A stretch of 64,000 nucleotides of DNA, from the sequence record MT478991.1, one strand, 5' to 3'. Every line of letters starts with the position of its first letter. Position 1 is the stretch's first letter. This document shows, piece after piece, positions 1-64,000 of the stretch. This DNA is from Escherichia phage vB_EcoM_011D4. Below the pieces are notes generated by a model. That model was not told the DNA's origin. It worked only from the letters and a program-made list of their open reading frames with translations, and ran no database searches. A program made the position numbers and the translations under genes.

Positions 1-46
1 GCGGTCAACTTTATTAGCCTTTCCCTCTTCGGACGTCTTTAGAAAA

Positions 47-349
47 TCACTGAATTTCATGTTCTCGATTCTCCATATTATGCAACAGAACAAATTGTTG
101 TGCGGCATATCCCCCCATAATAAAACACTGCTTAGAATCCATACATTTACTACGAGCATACATCTTCATAATATGGGCATGAAATTTCTGGCTGGTTTCA
201 ATGGAAGGAGATATTTTGTTTACATATACTATCATTGCACCGTCGAAATAATCAGTAAAGTCACCAGTTGGATCATATTGATCAGCACTGACACTTCCGA
301 CCGCAGTCAAGCATATTGCCGCTGTTAGAGTTTTACGAATAAATGACAT
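47..349 (-). CDS. hypothetical secreted protein (N-terminal signal peptide)
   Basis: ORF 100 aa; hydrophobic N-terminus MSFIRKTLTAAICLTAVGSVSA typical of a Sec signal peptide; no recognisable catalytic motif. Confidence 0.45.
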   Translation of the reverse strand: MSFIRKTLTAAICLTAVGSVSADQYDPTGDFTDYFDGAMIVYVNKISPSIETSQKFHAHIMKMYARSKCMDSKQCFIMGGYAAQQFVLLHNMENREHEIQ

Positions 350-382
350 AAGTCATTCCCCCAGATTGAAAATATTCAGTTA

Positions 383-390
383 TATTTATA
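383..390 (-). promoter_or_regulatory. T4-type late promoter-like box (TATAAATA on minus strand)
   Basis: plus strand reads tatttata, about 34 nt upstream of the minus-strand ORF starting at 349. Confidence 0.3.
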
Positions 391-417
391 ATCTGGGGCT
401 TTATTTATGATTAACTC

Positions 418-1014
418 TTATTTGGTAGTACCGTCAATAAAATGTTTACGGCACACAGAAACATATTTATCCTCTGCACCAACTTCGATTTGAGCACCAT
501 CGCGAATAACATTACCATCTTTATCTACGCGAAGGACCATAGTCGCTTTCTTGCCACAATGACAAATACCCTTCATTTCGACCAGTTTATCAGAAAATGC
601 CATTAATGCCGCAGATCCTTCAAATAGATTGCCCTGAAAGTCAGTGCGAAGGCCATAGCACAGTACAGGGATATTTGCATCATCAACAAGCGCACACAAG
701 CCTAAAACATGCTCTTTAGTCATAAATTGGGCTTCGTCTACAAAAACTGCATCTGGACGCCATCGATCCGGTCTACGCTTACCTAACGATTCACGATAAA
801 CCAAGTCGAAAAGATCATCCGATTTAGTGAAGGTGATCGCTGGAGCACTTAGGCCAATTCGGGAAACAACTTCATTTTCTGAATCTCGATTATCAATCGC
901 TGGCTTAAGAATTAATACTCGCATATCACGTTCGGTATAGTTATAAGCACTTTGTAATAGGGAAGTTGATTTGCCAGCGTTCATAGATGCATAGTAGAAA
1001 TATAATTGCGCCAT
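418..1014 (-). CDS. tk: thymidine kinase
   Basis: 198 aa; P-loop YYASMNAGKST near N-terminus, C-terminal zinc ribbon (CHCGKKAT ... VCRKHF) typical of type II thymidine kinases; size matches T4 Tk. Confidence 0.9.
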   Translation of the reverse strand: MAQLYFYYASMNAGKSTSLLQSAYNYTERDMRVLILKPAIDNRDSENEVVSRIGLSAPAITFTKSDDLFDLVYRESLGKRRPDRWRPDAVFVDEAQFMTKEHVLGLCALVDDANIPVLCYGLRTDFQGNLFEGSAALMAFSDKLVEMKGICHCGKKATMVLRVDKDGNVIRDGAQIEVGAEDKYVSVCRKHFIDGTTK

Positions 1015-1307
1015 TAATTAATCTCCAAAAATCCAGCAAGACCTAAACCGATATAAGTCCAGATACCAATAAAAAAGATGTTAATGCTCATGGCAAGGAT
1101 AAACCCTTTCAGCGTTTTGGGATACCCAACCCAATATTCCCGACCATCTTCTAACCGGATCAGTTTATTTCCTTGAGAGTCCATATCAACTACAACATGT
1201 TTATTTCGAGATTGCAATAGATATTGTTTTACAATCTCAATACCCGCCATAATAACAATAACGAAAATAAAAGTCCACACAACAAGATTAATGATAGTCT
1301 CAAGCAT
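1014..1307 (-). CDS. small membrane protein, hypothetical
   Basis: 97 aa ORF with several hydrophobic segments; start overlaps upstream ORF, stop abuts tk. Confidence 0.45.
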   Translation of the reverse strand: MLETIINLVVWTFIFVIVIMAGIEIVKQYLLQSRNKHVVVDMDSQGNKLIRLEDGREYWVGYPKTLKGFILAMSINIFFIGIWTYIGLGLAGFLEIN

Positions 1308-1542
1308 TTTCTATCACCTCCACCCAATCAGGTGTTTCCTGAAAGACTCCTTCACCTTCATGATGGTCGCAACCTTTATTGCTGCAATACATCCACCAAT
1401 CCCACATTCCCCACGGTAAACGCTGCATATCGTCGTTACAGCAAGTGAAGATGATAGGCCAACCACATCTAACACATCGGCAGTTTTCCTTCATGTGAGC
1501 GGTATTAGGCTTCTTCATAGATGACTCCAATATAATCGACAT
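1300..1542 (-). CDS. Cys-rich small protein, hypothetical (possible metal-binding)
   Basis: 80 aa with CRCVRC and CC/CSNKGC clusters; overlapping ORF chain typical of T4 tk.x region. Confidence 0.4.
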   Translation of the reverse strand: MSIILESSMKKPNTAHMKENCRCVRCGWPIIFTCCNDDMQRLPWGMWDWWMYCSNKGCDHHEGEGVFQETPDWVEVIENA

Positions 1543-1745
1543 TTACATTTAGGGCAATGCGGTTCTTTAATATAATACCCGTCTGTCTTTGGAACACTAA
1601 CAGGAGCGGTTTTTATATTGTATTCAGTGAAACAACGAAAACAAGTTACGTTTTCTACAGACTGACGTTTCACCCAATCACCGGAATAGAGATCATTTTT
1701 ATTTGTCATATTCAACCACCACAATATTGATATCTGGAGTAGCAA
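1515..1745 (-). CDS. zinc-ribbon-like small protein, hypothetical
   Basis: 76 aa with CFRC ... CPKCKC paired cysteine motifs. Confidence 0.4.
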   Translation of the reverse strand: MLLQISILWWLNMTNKNDLYSGDWVKRQSVENVTCFRCFTEYNIKTAPVSVPKTDGYYIKEPHCPKCKCRLYWSHL

Positions 1746-2154
1746 TATTAATGATTTCTTCTACACATTCCCACTCAAGGCCACCGATACCGCAACCGAT
1801 TTTAGGAATATAGAAAGGCTGTATAGCACCCTCAAAAACATCATTAAGAGACTCAAATCCTTTCAGGATAGCACCATATTCAGCATTTGGACCCGGTCGG
1901 AATTGGGTATAGAGATTCACCCCGCACCAGTTATAACCATTAACTTGATGCGTCCAGATACTAAACCCACCCAGCTTTTCTACCTTACCGCGAGAAGTTT
2001 GCTTGTCAATCTCTAACGCTTGCGGGAACTCTTTTGCGATATCCGCAGCAATACCAGCGCCCATAGTATGAAAACAATTACAACCATGAATTAAATGACC
2101 GTTTCCTTGTTTAAACAGGGCGATGAGATCGCCCTTTACAGTATCAATAATCAT
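1699..2154 (-). CDS. macrodomain protein, TARG1/OARD1-like (putative ADP-ribose hydrolase)
   Basis: 151 aa; motifs VKGDL ... HGCNCFHTMGAGIA ... F and PKIGCGIGGLEWE resemble the TARG1/C6orf130 macrodomain signature as recalled from memory. Confidence 0.6.
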   Translation of the reverse strand: MIIDTVKGDLIALFKQGNGHLIHGCNCFHTMGAGIAADIAKEFPQALEIDKQTSRGKVEKLGGFSIWTHQVNGYNWCGVNLYTQFRPGPNAEYGAILKGFESLNDVFEGAIQPFYIPKIGCGIGGLEWECVEEIINIATPDINIVVVEYDK

Positions 2155-2169
2155 AATATAAACCTCTCA

Positions 2170-2529
2170 TTAGTCACGGGAAGACAACCCAGCCATAAAA
2201 CGGCTTAACAGTGTGTCGCGATAAGCAAAGCATAATTGCTTATCAGGGGCAGTATCACACAGGTTGCGTTTTGTTTTAGCAAAGCTGGCAATACTCAGAT
2301 CCCATGCTCGATTTTTTCGTTTTTCGTCTCGACCTTGTTTGTATGCTTCATCAAGTTCGAGCGCGATAAAATCACTACACATGTTATCATCATCACAGAA
2401 AGTTTTAATGATCTTTTTGTTGATCTCAAATCCTTTGTATTCAAACTTTGGATAAGGGCGCTCATTACTAGCAAGCGCACCAGCCGAGAACATCATAGCA
2501 ATCATAGCAATTATTGTCAACTTTTTCAT
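2170..2529 (-). CDS. hypothetical secreted protein
   Basis: 119 aa; signal peptide MKKLTIIAMIAMMFSAGALA; several Cys residues. Confidence 0.45.
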   Translation of the reverse strand: MKKLTIIAMIAMMFSAGALASNERPYPKFEYKGFEINKKIIKTFCDDDNMCSDFIALELDEAYKQGRDEKRKNRAWDLSIASFAKTKRNLCDTAPDKQLCFAYRDTLLSRFMAGLSSRD

Positions 2530-2536
2530 ATATTCC

Positions 2537-3127
2537 TCAATAGCGTTTAGTCTTAAGAATGCCTTTACTCTTTAGATGGTTAGCCTTTTTTAGTACGTCA
2601 TCAGCATAACCTAATCCGGCTTTATAGTTCCATCCAGCATTGTAAGAAGCTAGCGCGAGTCGGATATTACCGTTTCGAACATCCAGCCAGTATGCTAACT
2701 CATCCATCGCGTAGAATGCAGAAACCTCGCGATTCATGATAAAGTTGATAGTCTGGCGATCACTCATTTTAACACCGCGCTTTGCATTTTTCGCTTTCAC
2801 CGTTTTAAGGTAATTTTGAAATAATCCATAAGCATGATGATTTTTCTTTGGTGCTAAGTTTGCACCCGCGCTTGATTCTTGCCATGCGATACCCGCCAGG
2901 ATGTGGCCTAAACCCTTTCCGTTATAGCGAATATTCGGATGGTACTTTTTCAACTTACCGCTTTTCTCAAATTGCTCGCCGTATTGATAGGCGAAATGTA
3001 AATTATCTAGTTGGTGTGCTGTAAAGTTGTCTATCGGCGCTTTTTTGATCGGTGCGCTAGTCGATGCGTGTGTAGCACCAACGGCTAGTGACAGACTCAA
3101 TACTATCGCTTTTAGAACTTTTAACAT
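2537..3127 (-). CDS. secreted lytic transglycosylase (SLT domain)
   Basis: 196 aa; signal peptide; SLT-type motifs AWQESS ... YGLFQ ... YNAG. Confidence 0.65.
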   Translation of the reverse strand: MLKVLKAIVLSLSLAVGATHASTSAPIKKAPIDNFTAHQLDNLHFAYQYGEQFEKSGKLKKYHPNIRYNGKGLGHILAGIAWQESSAGANLAPKKNHHAYGLFQNYLKTVKAKNAKRGVKMSDRQTINFIMNREVSAFYAMDELAYWLDVRNGNIRLALASYNAGWNYKAGLGYADDVLKKANHLKSKGILKTKRY

Positions 3128-3212
3128 TAATTTCTCCTGTTTGGCTTAACTTTCTGATTCCATAATATAGCCCTATCACCAGAAAGTCAAGCATTATTTT
3201 AACCAATTTCCA

Positions 3213-3635
3213 TTATTGGTCTACTTTCAAAACAACCGCCGACATTTTACCCGCCAGTCGTTTTGGATTCTCTATAATCATTCGGCAGCATAGACCGTGA
3301 TACGGCTTACCCTCTTCGATTAGATCTACTGTCATCCCGATCCACATGTTACCGTCAGTAATTTCTAATCGATTAGGTCTGTCTTCCATTTTCAGGAAGT
3401 CGAAGATCTCCGGCAAACGAGTTTCTATCTTATTGAATAGTTCCATTGTCTTATGTTCATCGATATGACGATCGGTTAGACGGTCGATCATATGCGGACT
3501 AAAGCGAATGAAAATATACTCACCATAACCATCATTCAAGCACTTTTCTTTGATCTGTGCATTGGTTTTGCGCATTTCGGTTTCGAAGAATCTACGCAGC
3601 TTACTACGGCGAACATGTACGTTAATTGTTTCCAT
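3213..3635 (-). CDS. hypothetical early protein (regB position by synteny; assignment tentative)
   Basis: ORF track gives 3213..3677; an internal Met (METINVHVRRSKLRR) preceded by AAGGA is the likelier start; size and position relative to tk resemble T4 regB but the sequence could not be verified. Confidence 0.4.
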   Translation of the reverse strand: METINVHVRRSKLRRFFETEMRKTNAQIKEKCLNDGYGEYIFIRFSPHMIDRLTDRHIDEHKTMELFNKIETRLPEIFDFLKMEDRPNRLEITDGNMWIGMTVDLIEEGKPYHGLCCRMIIENPKRLAGKMSAVVLKVDQ

Positions 3636-3639
3636 TTTA

Positions 3640-3975
3640 TTATCCTTTCTTAAACAAATTGCGAAGCCAGTATACAAACGGGATTTCTTTAAACTTGAAT
3701 TTCTCGATAGTTAATTCTTTAGTAGCAAGATGAATACCATAAGCATCATGTGTCACGATATGCCATTTTCTATAGTCCAAATGTGAACAACCGTCTGGAT
3801 CTAGGTTAATAAGAGTTTCTCGCTCACTAGGATTATTTTTCCACAATTTTGTAATAGGATCGCACATAATTCGACCTAGCGTACCATGAATAATCTCACA
3901 ACGGTAAAGTTTTCCAGCAGTGAGATAGGCGCACCCGTCATAGTCGGTATAAACAAACACTTCTTTAACACTCAT
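3640..3975 (-). CDS. hypothetical protein, member of tandem paralog family (DGCSHL motif)
   Basis: 111 aa; shares (D/G)GCSHL and aromatic-rich motifs with the next two ORFs; own early promoter upstream. Confidence 0.5.
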   Translation of the reverse strand: MSVKEVFVYTDYDGCAYLTAGKLYRCEIIHGTLGRIMCDPITKLWKNNPSERETLINLDPDGCSHLDYRKWHIVTHDAYGIHLATKELTIEKFKFKEIPFVYWLRNLFKKG

Positions 3976-4003
3976 TTTAATACTCCTTTGTTGTTTCGAT
4001 GGG

Positions 4004-4037
4004 GGTGTATATTACTACCCCCGTTTTGTTGTGTCAA
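4004..4037 (-). promoter_or_regulatory. early sigma70-type promoter with stem-loop (PeSL-like)
   Basis: minus strand reads TTGACA-17 nt-TAATAT; inverted repeat GGGGGT/ACCCCC spans the -10; followed by leader and AGGAG. Confidence 0.5.
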
Positions 4038-4298
4038 CTACTTTTTCAAGATTTTTTTGAGTGCATTCCAAAGACCTTTATTCTCAGGTTGTTTTGGTTC
4101 TTCGATCAGTGTCCACGGACGGTCGTCTAAGTATGCACAGCTTTTCAGAGAAATAAAAAGTTTATATCCTTGATCATCTTTGATGTAACCGTAGGTAGAC
4201 ATTCTTTCATCTGGCGTAAACTTATACAGTTTATTTGGGGTGATGTAAGATCTACTACTATAAGGTGTCATCACATACATCATGGTACTAACTCCCAT
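4038..4298 (-). CDS. hypothetical protein, tandem paralog family
   Basis: 86 aa; motif TPxKLYKFTP ... GYIxDD ... paralogous to 4280..4474. Confidence 0.45.
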   Translation of the reverse strand: MGVSTMMYVMTPYSSRSYITPNKLYKFTPDERMSTYGYIKDDQGYKLFISLKSCAYLDDRPWTLIEEPKQPENKGLWNALKKILKK

Positions 4299-4474
4299 TT
4301 ATCACCGCGAAGATGAGAACATCCACCATCAAGAAGGATCGTAATACGAAACCCCACATCATCTTCAATATACCCGATAGTCGGTGGATGTTCGTCGTCT
4401 CGTGCCGGGGTAAAATCATACATCTTTCCCGGTGTGATATCATTGCCTTTATTGCTATTGGTATAAACTTGCAT
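4280..4474 (-). CDS. hypothetical protein, tandem paralog family
   Basis: 64 aa; motifs TPGKMYDFTP, GYIEDD, GGCSHL shared with neighbours. Confidence 0.45.
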   Translation of the reverse strand: MQVYTNSNKGNDITPGKMYDFTPARDDEHPPTIGYIEDDVGFRITILLDGGCSHLRGDKWELVP

Positions 4475-4495
4475 TTTCTTAATCTCCTATATTAA

Positions 4496-5194
4496 CTAAC
4501 CACGGGTATAGTGTTCCAGAACAACTGTCAGATGAATATATTCTAATAGATCTTTCCAAAAGTCAACATCTGGTTCTTCCGGCATACCGTTTTTCTTTGC
4601 CTCTTCACGCGCGAGTTTAACACGCTCGTAGAGATCTTTCAATTCTTCCCGCACATTATCAAAGGTTCTTTCTCCTAACTTACACGCTAAAATAGAAGAA
4701 CGTCGCGCGAGCGGGAATTGTAGATCACCAGTTTGATAGATTTCAAGTAGCTGATAACCAACACGCAGAGCATGAGAAAGATCTTTCCAGTTACTGAAAT
4801 ACTTTTCAGATTTTGTTACCTGTTTCTTGAGATAACCAGACAAACCCCACATACCAACATGATAGAATTTATCGCGATGTGTTCGGATGTATTCCCATTC
4901 TCTGGAGGATTCAACCAACATGTTACTAGGCGCGTGCACCATGTCAATAGCGCCGATATCGCCTTTACATGCCAGATTGATAAACCGTTTTAGACTGAAC
5001 ATATTAACATCAATATCGTCTTTGGTGTTCTTGATACCTTGACCGCTAGTGCTTTGGTCATAGTGTTCTTTCATCGATCCTAAGATAATTTCTTTAGCAG
5101 TCGGAACAAAGATACCACGATAATCTTTATCTGAATTTTCAGTATCAAGGCCGTACAAGTGAGATCCGAAGACCATTTTAACCATTGTATGCAT
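4496..5194 (-). CDS. predicted nucleotidyltransferase (minimal pol-beta-like fold)
   Basis: 232 aa; N-terminal GSHLYGLDTENSDKDYRGIF matches the GS ... D.D nucleotidyltransferase motif. Confidence 0.5.
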   Translation of the reverse strand: MHTMVKMVFGSHLYGLDTENSDKDYRGIFVPTAKEIILGSMKEHYDQSTSGQGIKNTKDDIDVNMFSLKRFINLACKGDIGAIDMVHAPSNMLVESSREWEYIRTHRDKFYHVGMWGLSGYLKKQVTKSEKYFSNWKDLSHALRVGYQLLEIYQTGDLQFPLARRSSILACKLGERTFDNVREELKDLYERVKLAREEAKKNGMPEEPDVDFWKDLLEYIHLTVVLEHYTRG

Positions 5195-5207
5195 AATTAA
5201 ACCCTCA

Positions 5208-5738
5208 TTAGTATTTTACGTTACGTCGAACGCCTTTTCGAATCTGACAAATAGCAGACGGTGAAACATTATATTTTCTTGCAAGTTCTACACCCTTCAT
5301 ATGGGGAGAAGATAAAATCTCTTCCACTTGGTCGTCGGTAAGTTTTGCGTTTCCGTGGTTCTCTCCCCAATTGTTGTTTAATCCTTCTTCCTTCGCATGA
5401 ACAAGATTTCGGGTATCTGTCGTCCATTCAAGATTATAAAGGTCATAGTTTTGTTTGTTTCCATCCTTATGATTAACTACACGGTAGTTATTTGGATTCG
5501 GAATAAACGCAACCGCCATAGCTTTATGCATGTTCACGGTTTTTCTAAATCCATCCGGCTTATAACATACTGTAAATTTAGAATAACCAGTTTTACCATA
5601 AACACTAATATAATTTCCGGTCTCTGTATTTCTAACCCTACCATGAGAGCTAATCTCAAATTGAGTGTAGGGCAACAGCGCATCAATCACTTTCCATTCT
5701 TCGACAGGATGGTCATCACAATATCTTTTAATCATCAT
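5208..5738 (-). CDS. HNH homing endonuclease (NUMOD4 + HNH + C-terminal HTH)
   Basis: 176 aa; FEISSHGRVRN (NUMOD4-like), NHKDGNKQNYDLYNLEW (HNH), C-terminal ARKYNVSPSAICQIRKG HTH. Confidence 0.8.
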   Translation of the reverse strand: MMIKRYCDDHPVEEWKVIDALLPYTQFEISSHGRVRNTETGNYISVYGKTGYSKFTVCYKPDGFRKTVNMHKAMAVAFIPNPNNYRVVNHKDGNKQNYDLYNLEWTTDTRNLVHAKEEGLNNNWGENHGNAKLTDDQVEEILSSPHMKGVELARKYNVSPSAICQIRKGVRRNVKY

Positions 5739-5754
5739 ATCACCTCATAAAAAT

Positions 5755-5785
5755 AAAGCCAACCCTTTCGGATTGGCTTAAAAAA
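5755..5785 (-). terminator. hairpin terminator downstream of GrcA-like gene
   Basis: inverted repeat aagccaa / ttggctt followed on the minus strand by a U-run. Confidence 0.45.
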
Positions 5786-6202
5786 TTACATTGCTTCCGT
5801 AAAGGTGCGCGAAATAACGTCACGTTGTTGGTCTGGAGTCAGACTATTGAATCTTACGGCATATCCGCTAACGCGAATGGTTAGTTGCGGATACTTATCA
5901 GGATTAGCAACCGCATCAAGAAGAAGATCGCGACTCATCACATTGATATTCGCGTGCTGACCACCTTCGACAACCGGAGCACCATTATCTACAATGACAG
6001 GACGGAAGCTAGTTGTGTGTAGTGCCAGCGAATCGACGTCTTCTGCGGTGATCACATGGTCTTCTGCGAAAGTTTTACTAACAATTACTTTAGCGCCGAT
6101 CAGTGCTTTCGGTTCGGATACCAGAATCATAGGCGCGAAGTGTCCACCAATAATAGTACCTTTATGCTCACCTTTCATGATTTGAATTGCTTTAAATTCC
6201 AT
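5786..6202 (-). CDS. autonomous glycyl radical cofactor (GrcA/YfiD-like)
   Basis: 138 aa; C-terminus [32 protein letters not shown] carries the glycyl-radical signature RVSGYA and closely resembles E. coli GrcA as recalled. Confidence 0.8.
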
Positions 6203-63084: not shown

Positions 63085-63598
63085 ATTTGATTAAATCATC
63101 ACATTGTTTGCGTAGTTTATAGCGATACTGTTTTGATTGTAGCAATTGAAGTTTTTCATAATCCCCTTCCTCATATGCAGCCGAAAGATCATCTTGATAT
63201 GCTGCTTCCGTCCCGATTACACATACTCCAAATTTTCTACGACGGTCGGCATCTTCCATTGCTTTGCGATTCATTTCTTCAATTGAATTTTCATGACCAT
63301 AATAATATTCGTAAATGCGTTTCTTCTCTGCTTCTTTATCTGCCTTAATCTTTGCGATCTGTTCTGCTGATTCCGGTTGACGACCTAAACGCTGTAATGA
63401 GGCGTCTTTCTTTTCAAGGTAGTCAATAACGCAATCTTCAACGCTATTAAATGGAAAACGTGACTCTTTCTGCCATCGTTCACATGACCGTACAAACTCG
63501 TGTGTATTCTTAGATGCAAGTGCCAGATCATGCACAGCGCACCCATTAAGCATAGCCACTAAAGCCGCAGCAAGACCAATCAGTTTAATCATTTTCAT
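63083..63598 (-). CDS. putative lipoprotein
   Basis: 171 aa; signal peptide with lipobox-like LNGC; Lys/Glu-rich helical body; start ATG overlaps the stop of the upstream ART gene. Confidence 0.5.
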   Translation of the reverse strand: MKMIKLIGLAAALVAMLNGCAVHDLALASKNTHEFVRSCERWQKESRFPFNSVEDCVIDYLEKKDASLQRLGRQPESAEQIAKIKADKEAEKKRIYEYYYGHENSIEEMNRKAMEDADRRRKFGVCVIGTEAAYQDDLSAAYEEGDYEKLQLLQSKQYRYKLRKQCDDLIK

Positions 63599-64000
63599 TT
63601 AGTCACCTCACCGAAAATTGTAAATTGTCTACGATTCTCATCACCGAAAGATTCTACTACGTCGTTTACCTTGACGCAAGTCCCGCGCGGTAAAATTACT
63701 TCACATTCGCAAGGATTCCATGCAATTGACCCAACAACAAAACCTTTATGATCTTTTACGTCAATTACCCACGATACATTACAAGAATGTTGCATCTTTC
63801 CGGTCATGGATTCATATCGATTCTCACAATAAAGGCTAGTGCTGTTTGATAGCCAGCCTCCAAAGATGATCGGTGTCATGCTGGTTGACACAAAGTTTTT
63901 AAAGGTAAATTCCTTATCTTCAATAATACGCTCTATTGTCTGAATGTCAAGATGTTGACCGCGATAAAGAGTACCGTTTAACTTTTCGGTTTTATCCATG
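63595..64000 (-). CDS. ADP-ribosyltransferase domain protein (R-S-E fold; possibly 5'-partial at window edge; T4 alt position)
   Basis: at least 134 aa; LYRG (Arg), STS and CECEV (E-x-E) in the order and spacing of the ART R-S-ExE catalytic triad; ATG at 63997-63999 but the ORF may continue beyond the window. Confidence 0.55.
   Translation of the reverse strand, partial: MDKTEKLNGTLYRGQHLDIQTIERIIEDKEFTFKNFVSTSMTPIIFGGWLSNSTSLYCENRYESMTGKMQHSCNVSWVIDVKDHKGFVVGSIAWNPCECEVILPRGTCVKVNDVVESFGDENRRQFTIFGEVTK

Follow-up and report, generated by a model that had tools for sequence, protein, structure and literature searches.

A Krischvirus ortholog of T4 tk.4 (adfM): a stand-alone macrodomain with a predicted glutamine-type active site and a probable anti-DarT2 role

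Among known systems, the closest is tk.4 of phage T4, which came out as the single significant gene in a transposon screen of T4 on a DarTG2 host (November 2025 preprint 10.1101/2025.11.20.689424). A clean tk.4 knockout was sensitised to DarTG2, and the gene was renamed adfM, for anti-DarT factor Macrodomain (bioRxiv 10.1101/2025.11.20.689424); its product was proposed to be an enzyme that takes ADP-ribose off DNA (10.1101/2025.11.20.689424). T4 also encodes AdfN (gene 30.3), a NADAR enzyme that removes the guanine-linked ADP-ribose made by DarT1 and gives no protection from DarTG2 (PMC11825919). The name AdfM has also been used for gp104 of phage PhiKZ, which removes ADP-ribose from a DarT2-modified TNTC oligonucleotide in vitro (2026 Cell Reports, PMC13309987). 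For the related cellular macrodomains, catalysis by TARG1 depends on Lys84 and Asp125, and DarG has an equivalent lysine (Lys80 in T. aquaticus DarG) (PMC9411070). SCO6735 of Streptomyces coelicolor carries Gln85 at the position of this lysine, and the substitutions Q85A and N27S abolish its activity; the enzyme strips DarT-made dT-ADPr from ssDNA with high processivity, protects cells from DarT, and is proposed to work through a substrate-positioning Gln and a catalytic water held by the backbone (PMC9411070). In the literature, we found no DarTG2 data for RB49 or for Krischvirus.

The tk.4 locus and its relatives

The window analyzed here is a 64,000-nucleotide stretch of Escherichia phage vB_EcoM_011D4 (MT478991.1). 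Its first part (1-6 kb) is 96-97% identical to the Krischvirus phages Whisky, JSE, Phi1 and RB49, and on this sequence identity the phage is a Krischvirus of the RB49/JSE-like kind. The 97%-identical phage JSE was used as the annotation reference for the window. The features of the locus are as follows:

1699..2154, minus strand: tk.4/adfM coding sequence, an ATG-initiated open reading frame of 151 aa encoding a single-domain macrodomain
2163..2168, minus strand: Shine-Dalgarno sequence GAGAGG, upstream of tk.4 and separated from its ATG by 8 nt (read from the sequence)
2170..2529, minus strand: vs (valyl-tRNA synthetase modifier), a synteny anchor (open reading frame, JSE and T4 annotation)
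1515..1709, minus strand: small open reading frame with a Phage_zn_bind_2 domain (PF23903, 82.6 bits; Pfam, JSE annotation, sequence)
1300-1542, minus strand: small open reading frame with a phage zinc binding domain (PF23895, 116 bits; Pfam)
418..1014, minus strand: tk (thymidine kinase), the downstream synteny anchor (open reading frame, JSE and T4 annotation)
3162..3190, minus strand: candidate sigma-70-like promoter TTGACT-17-TATTAT, 10/12 matches (consensus scan)
2492..2520, minus strand: top-scoring promoter-like site TTGACA-17-TATGAT with extended TG, 11/12 matches (pattern match only)

The immediate upstream neighbour of tk.4 is vs, which is transcribed in the same direction and whose stop codon (2170-2172) precedes the tk.4 ATG by 15 nt. 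On the other side, the ATG (at 1709) of the small gene that occupies the place of T4 tk.3 overlaps the 3' end of tk.4, indicating a tightly packed operon. JSE has rI, tk, three small open reading frames, tk.4, vs, vs.1 and regB in succession, and the order rI-tk-(small ORFs)-tk.4-vs-vs.1-regB is common to the window, JSE and T4, with the position of tk.4 between tk and vs kept across all three of these Straboviridae. The gene is thus part of the prereplicative tk-regB cluster by JSE and T4 annotation, which bears out the early-region location that a first-pass annotation, made from the letters of the sequence, had assigned to it. Within this conserved frame, T4 tk.1-tk.3 are replaced in the window phage by the two small zinc-binding open reading frames (1300-1542 and 1515-1709).

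The candidate promoter at 3162..3190 sits in the regB/vs.1 intergenic region and could perhaps drive vs.1-vs-tk.4-tk, and the site at 2492..2520 lies within the 5' part of vs, where it might serve as an internal promoter ahead of tk.4. Individual promoter sites are uncertain, since the consensus scan found 27 such sites where 16.7 +/- 4.2 were expected, a number barely above background; terminator-like sites numbered 6 (3.6 +/- 2.3 expected). Further along the window, the open reading frame at 5208-5738 (minus strand, 176 aa) is annotated in JSE as a homing endonuclease, and most other Krischvirus records match just 91% of window positions 1-6000, as two pieces. This pattern fits a mobile endonuclease gene that would have been inserted between nrdC.11 and vs.6 in some strains.

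The window protein aligns with T4 Tk.4 over its full length (residues 1-150 against 1-152) with 44% identity, 65% positives and an E value of 7e-45, and it matches PHROG 335 with an E value of 3.9e-62. Given this full-length identity and the identical gene order, the window gene is the syntenic Krischvirus ortholog of T4 tk.4 (adfM). The JSE annotation of the gene reads 'tk.4; phosphatase; contains A1pp phosphatase motif', and the T4 copy is likewise annotated tk.4. Using tblastn, relatives were found in 2,734 of 50,697 phage records, from Straboviridae, Vequintavirus and Felixounavirus to Kuttervirus-size Salmonella and Klebsiella phages and phages of Pseudomonas and Vibrio; five phage records carry a copy at least 99% identical to the window Tk.4. 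When a profile was run against 1.84 billion cluster representatives, 1,276 of them (clusters at 50% identity) matched at E<=1e-30, and the number rose to 8,714 at E<=1e-10. In other words, tk.4 is a very common phage gene whose near-identical copies are already annotated in GenBank, and the gene itself, its macrodomain nature and the anti-DarTG2 role of the T4 copy are all known.

Several observations on the spread of the family stand beside this result. Copies from rV5-like phages of Vequintavirus, Murica and Bas59 among them, share 68-69% identity with the Krischvirus Tk.4, and those of Tequatrovirus and Mosigvirus just 44-50%, which suggests from sequence comparison that tk.4 has been exchanged laterally between unrelated E. 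coli myoviruses. In the bacterium Pelagimonas phthalicica, a 43% identical homolog (L004, 8001-8459) stands alone among housekeeping genes, a situation that resembles that of SCO6735; no DarT-like gene or prophage was seen near this homolog, in what is one bacterial context and a single case. A Marseillevirus LCMAC103 protein in BFVD (A0A481YV05, 302 aa) has a Tk.4-like macrodomain (TM 0.91, 38% identity) and is annotated 'SNF2 subfamily protein', an annotation that by itself recalls the SNF2-plus-macrodomain pairing of ALC1. Extra domains or two macrodomain stretches are present in some close family members, namely P0163 (451 aa), P0179 (472 aa), P0227 (570 aa), P0170 and P0229 (302 aa).

Fold, class and active site

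The first-pass annotation had recognised a TARG1/OARD1-like macrodomain from three short blocks, KGDL, HGCNCFHTMGAGIA and IGCGIGGLEWE, and all of these are present in the 151-aa open reading frame. The fold that it proposed is borne out by profile and structure searches. The Pfam Macro profile (PF01661) is matched over its whole length (positions 1-118 of 118) at 29 bits, above the gathering score of 22, and the predicted model (pLDDT 96.9) has the three-layer alpha/beta/alpha arrangement of the macro fold. The ADP-ribose-binding loops are MGAGIA (residues 31-36) and IGCGIGG (residues 119-125), in which G34, G120 and G122 are invariant or nearly so across 260 members of the Tk.4 family. A single-sequence search matched the solved macrodomains of M. 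tuberculosis (Mtb) DarG (5M3I), Bacteroides BT1257, human TARG1/OARD1 and SCO6735, and with a 55-sequence profile the scores were 58.3 bits for BT1257, 57.5 for TARG1, 56.5 for SCO6735 and 52.8 for Mtb DarG; these scores do not tell which cellular subgroup is the nearest relative, a distinction made only by the catalytic column of the alignment. The best Foldseek match of the model was human TARG1/OARD1 (4J5R/4J5S; E 4.8e-11, TM 0.76-0.82, 28% identity). Taken over both structure and sequence, the nearest neighbours are TARG1, DarG, SCO6735, BT1257 and Poa1p rather than the MacroD, PARG or viral classes, and the window protein belongs to the ALC1-like/TARG1-like (TARG1/DarG) class of macrodomains.

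While the class thus stands, the TARG1 active site does not. In every usable alignment, the lysine of the TARG1 'ITK' and DarG 'PTK' segments falls opposite Gln84 ('YTQ') in the window protein. This mapping was obtained using phmmer against 5M3I, the family profile against 4J5R, a C-terminal sub-query against 4J5Q, and a 125-sequence MAFFT alignment; the HMMER alignments agree with the 125- and 260-sequence alignments, and a six-sequence MAFFT alignment that misaligned the FPTK segment of DarG and PhiKZ was left out of residue mapping. The column of TARG1 Asp125 holds Gly124 in the window protein. Among the 260 family members, Gln occupies the Lys84 column in 257, and the Asp125 column holds Gly or Ala in 257 and Asp in none, with one member having Asp at the adjacent Gly125 column. 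The Lys84/Asp125 dyad is therefore absent from the window protein in these alignments and in the 260-member family, and the conserved catalytic residues, whose absence the first-pass annotation had itself named as refuting its reading, are replaced by Gln84 and Gly124. For the same reason, identity as TARG1/OARD1 proper was ruled out. The catalytic lysine of DarG is absent as well, the K of the Mtb DarG FPTK segment aligning with Gln84 in LYTQ.

Asn26 is invariant (260/260), T4 Tk.4 carries the same NLYTQF block as the window protein, and BT1257 has Gln and Asn in the Gln84 and Asn26 columns. The predicted active-site residues are accordingly Asn26 and Gln84. Gln84 would correspond to SCO6735 Gln85, an equivalence drawn transitively through the alignments to TARG1, DarG and BT1257 and the structural alignment in PMC9411070. 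The site as a whole fits the Gln type of SCO6735 and BT1257, and by analogy the protein would hydrolyse dT-ADPr. Asp50, whose codon lies near 2005-2007, is shared by 259 of the 260 members, whereas TARG1 has Leu at this column and both DarG and BT1257 have Tyr; the mechanism published for SCO6735 involves no corresponding residue. As judged from these alignments, Asp50 is a near-invariant residue specific to the Tk.4 family.

Proposed function and its alternatives

We consider it probable, at roughly 70%, that Krischvirus tk.4 encodes an AdfM-type eraser of DarT2 marks on phage DNA. The window protein, a stand-alone macrodomain, would be produced ahead of replication and serve as an orphan enzyme of antitoxin-like function. 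In the mechanism that we propose, a DarT2-type toxin of the host would ADP-ribosylate thymidines in single-stranded phage DNA and so block replication. Tk.4, presumably made early, would bind the DNA-attached ADP-ribose in its Gly-rich cleft, formed by the MGAGIA and IGCGIGG loops, and hydrolyse the N-glycosidic bond between ribose and thymine, releasing free ADP-ribose and restored DNA so that replication could proceed. Catalysis would most likely be lysine-less and of the SCO6735 type, with Asn26 holding Gln84 and Gln84 positioning the distal ribose; a water oriented by the backbone would then start hydrolysis, whereas TARG1 and DarG rely on a lysine. What the analysis shows directly is the fold, the macrodomain class, the orthologous and syntenic relationship to T4 tk.4, and which active-site residues are present and how well they are conserved; T4 genetics and SCO6735 biochemistry together argue for the same substrate and role in the window protein. 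This part of the first-pass annotation, namely that the protein could counter ADP-ribosylating toxins of the host, agrees with the DarTG2-sensitive knockout of the T4 ortholog (10.1101/2025.11.20.689424). Orphan enzymes that erase DarT-made ADP-ribose also have precedents in phages, namely AdfN (PMC11825919) and PhiKZ AdfM (PMC13309987). The specificity of the window protein could nevertheless differ from that of T4 Tk.4, as the two are only 44% identical, and DarT2 need not be the sole or original target, given the very large and diverse family and its DarT-less stand-alone bacterial copies.

Protection could also come mainly from binding and blocking of DarT2, with the protein acting as a stoichiometric inhibitor or antitoxin mimic. 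The catalytically dead Q85A form of SCO6735 still inhibits DarT by interaction, more so than DarG and TARG1 mutants (PMC9411070), and the phage anti-DarT factors AdfA and AdfB work by direct binding. We nonetheless consider this reading unlikely: the window protein lacks the C-terminal domain by which DarG binds DarT, and the loops, Asn26 and Gln84 are almost perfectly conserved in 260 diverse members. Such conservation argues for catalysis, since a surface that binds the toxin should change as the toxin does.

The literal sense of the 'phosphatase' annotation would make the protein a small-molecule enzyme, either an ADP-ribose-1''-phosphate phosphatase or an O-acetyl-ADP-ribose deacetylase, and Poa1p is structurally close to the window protein. 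These enzyme names, however, are transferred from a generic domain name; the annotated neighbours include no Tpt1/KptA gene that would generate ADPr-1''-phosphate, and the phenotype of the T4 knockout is specific to a toxin that ADP-ribosylates DNA (10.1101/2025.11.20.689424), which leaves this reading very unlikely. We regard it as more improbable still that Tk.4 erases other nucleic-acid marks, such as CmdT-like RNA ADP-ribosylation or guanine or cytidine marks, instead of or besides DarT2 products. The family is very broad and occurs also in bacteria without a neighbouring DarT, and defences that ADP-ribosylate RNA or other bases and act on T-even phages do exist (PMC11618068, PMC12945103). 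Guanine-ADPr, however, is handled by NADAR enzymes, T4 using AdfN for this purpose (PMC11825919), and in simulations of SCO6735 dG-ADPr was not productively accommodated (PMC9411070).

A last alternative involves the far end of the window, where the first-pass annotation had noted an ADP-ribosyltransferase:

63595..64000, minus strand: Alt-like ADP-ribosyltransferase, C-terminal 134 aa, cut by the end of the window (open reading frame, Pfam)

This gene is real and encodes a short Alt paralog, with the R (LYRG), STS and ExE (ECE) motifs and a Pfam ADPrib_exo_Tox match of 37.3 bits. In relatives, the gene is annotated Alt; in PHB13 it encodes 274 aa and is followed by a 683-aa Alt. Tandem Alt-like genes occur in Krischvirus (L003, 8592-9416 and 9495-11546), placing the canonical 683-aa Alt just beyond the window. 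Alt-type enzymes ADP-ribosylate arginine, and the linkages known for TARG1-class macrodomains are Asp/Glu-ester and thymidine; we know of no TARG1-class macrodomain that cleaves arginine-ADP-ribose. The Alt-like phage records are annotated NAD(+)--arginine ADP-ribosyltransferase.

The first-pass annotation had combined these two genes into a writer and an eraser, with the eraser perhaps tuning the phage's own modification of host proteins. On this reading, the macrodomain would reverse or tune the ADP-ribosylation that phage enzymes of the Alt/ModA/ModB type place on host proteins, for instance RNA polymerase. An Alt-like enzyme is indeed encoded within the window, a second, full-length Alt comes next in relatives, and both TARG1 and SCO6735 have some activity on ADP-ribosylated proteins (PMC9411070). 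The arginine target of Alt-type enzymes nevertheless speaks against such tuning when set beside the Asp/Glu-ester and thymidine linkages known for the TARG1 class. Moreover, Alt-like matches were obtained in 1,182 phage records and Tk.4 homologs in 2,734; the latter include 184 Pseudomonas and 134 Vibrio phage records, neither group being in the top-10 host list for Alt. In T4, finally, tk.4 mattered only when DarTG2 was present (10.1101/2025.11.20.689424). On these grounds a functional writer-eraser relationship is quite unlikely, and the pairing in this genome is probably coincidental.

Comparison with known macrodomains and AdfM lineages

Compared with T4 Tk.4, the window protein has a similar single-domain size (151 aa against 155 aa) and shares the HGCNCFHTMG.G.A and NLYTQF.PGPN blocks, including the Gln at the column of the catalytic Lys. 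The two differ at 56% of residues and in the second glycine loop, which reads IGAGIGKGNW in T4 and IGCGIGGLEW in the window, and the window copy is nearer to the Vequintavirus copies than to T4. The anti-DarTG2 role is known from genetics in T4.

Of the cellular macrodomains, human TARG1 resembles the window protein in its KGDL start, MGAGIA loop and P.IGCG...W.E block, and differs in having Lys84 and Asp125 where the window protein has Gln84 and Gly124, as well as Ser where the Tk.4 family has Asn26. DarG (5M3I, 5M3E, 7OMU) has its catalytic Lys in FPTK where the window protein has Gln. The DarG model (NCBIfam NF048014; PADLOC DarG) reached 49 bits against a cutoff of 250, over model positions 2-141 of 338, and by this match the C-terminal DarT-binding domain of DarG is absent from the 151-aa window protein. 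No darT adjoins tk.4, whose neighbours are vs, vs.1, regB, the two small zinc-binding open reading frames and tk. Identity as a DarG antitoxin was therefore rejected, as the catalytic Lys, the DarT-binding domain, an equivalog-level score and a neighbouring darT are all lacking. SCO6735 (5E3B) and BT1257 (2FG1/2AFC) are cellular members of the ALC1/TARG1-like group with a Gln-type site, at about 23-25% identity to the window protein, and SCO6735 differs by a longer, Lys-rich mobile loop. The Tk.4 family invariants Asp50, Asn80 and Tyr82 are absent from, or only partly shared by, BT1257, DarG and TARG1.

Like the window protein, PhiKZ gp104 is a stand-alone phage macrodomain with a conserved active-site Asn, and it counters DarTG2 (PMC13309987). 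Translation of its printed construct showed the FPTK lysine to be present. It scored 88.6 bits (37% identity) against the Mtb DarG macrodomain, but only 32 bits (26% identity) against the window protein and 21 bits against T4 Tk.4; for this reason PhiKZ gp104, of the DarG/Lys type, and Tk.4, of the Gln type, are separate macrodomain lineages that share the name AdfM. The two also differ in setting, in that gp104 is imported into the phage nucleus, a structure that Straboviridae, to our knowledge, do not have. ICP1 AdfB was set aside as a related 'antitoxin mimic', since no macrodomain is described for it and its action lies in binding to DarT.

It is conceivable, although we hold it to be rather doubtful, that the Tk.4-type AdfM is a lysine-less, SCO6735-like lineage that was recruited independently of the chimallivirus DarG/Lys-type, maybe from stand-alone cellular macrodomains and not from DarG, and that its members are possibly broad-spectrum erasers rather than dedicated anti-DarT2 enzymes. 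With a dual DNA and protein activity like that of SCO6735, and with use of Asp50, such proteins could act on dT-ADPr DNA, on Asp/Glu-linked protein ADPr and perhaps on RNA ADPr. If the AdfM-type reading holds, RB49-group phages would carry the anti-DarTG2 countermeasure of T4, which would help in predicting host range on DarTG2 E. coli. Caution is called for in applying to T4-like phages what is known of the biochemistry of PhiKZ AdfM and DarG, and this extends to inhibitors directed against the catalytic lysine. Set against the described systems, the additions made here are modest: the SCO6735-type Gln site of the Tk.4 lineage, and its distinctness from the PhiKZ-type AdfM.
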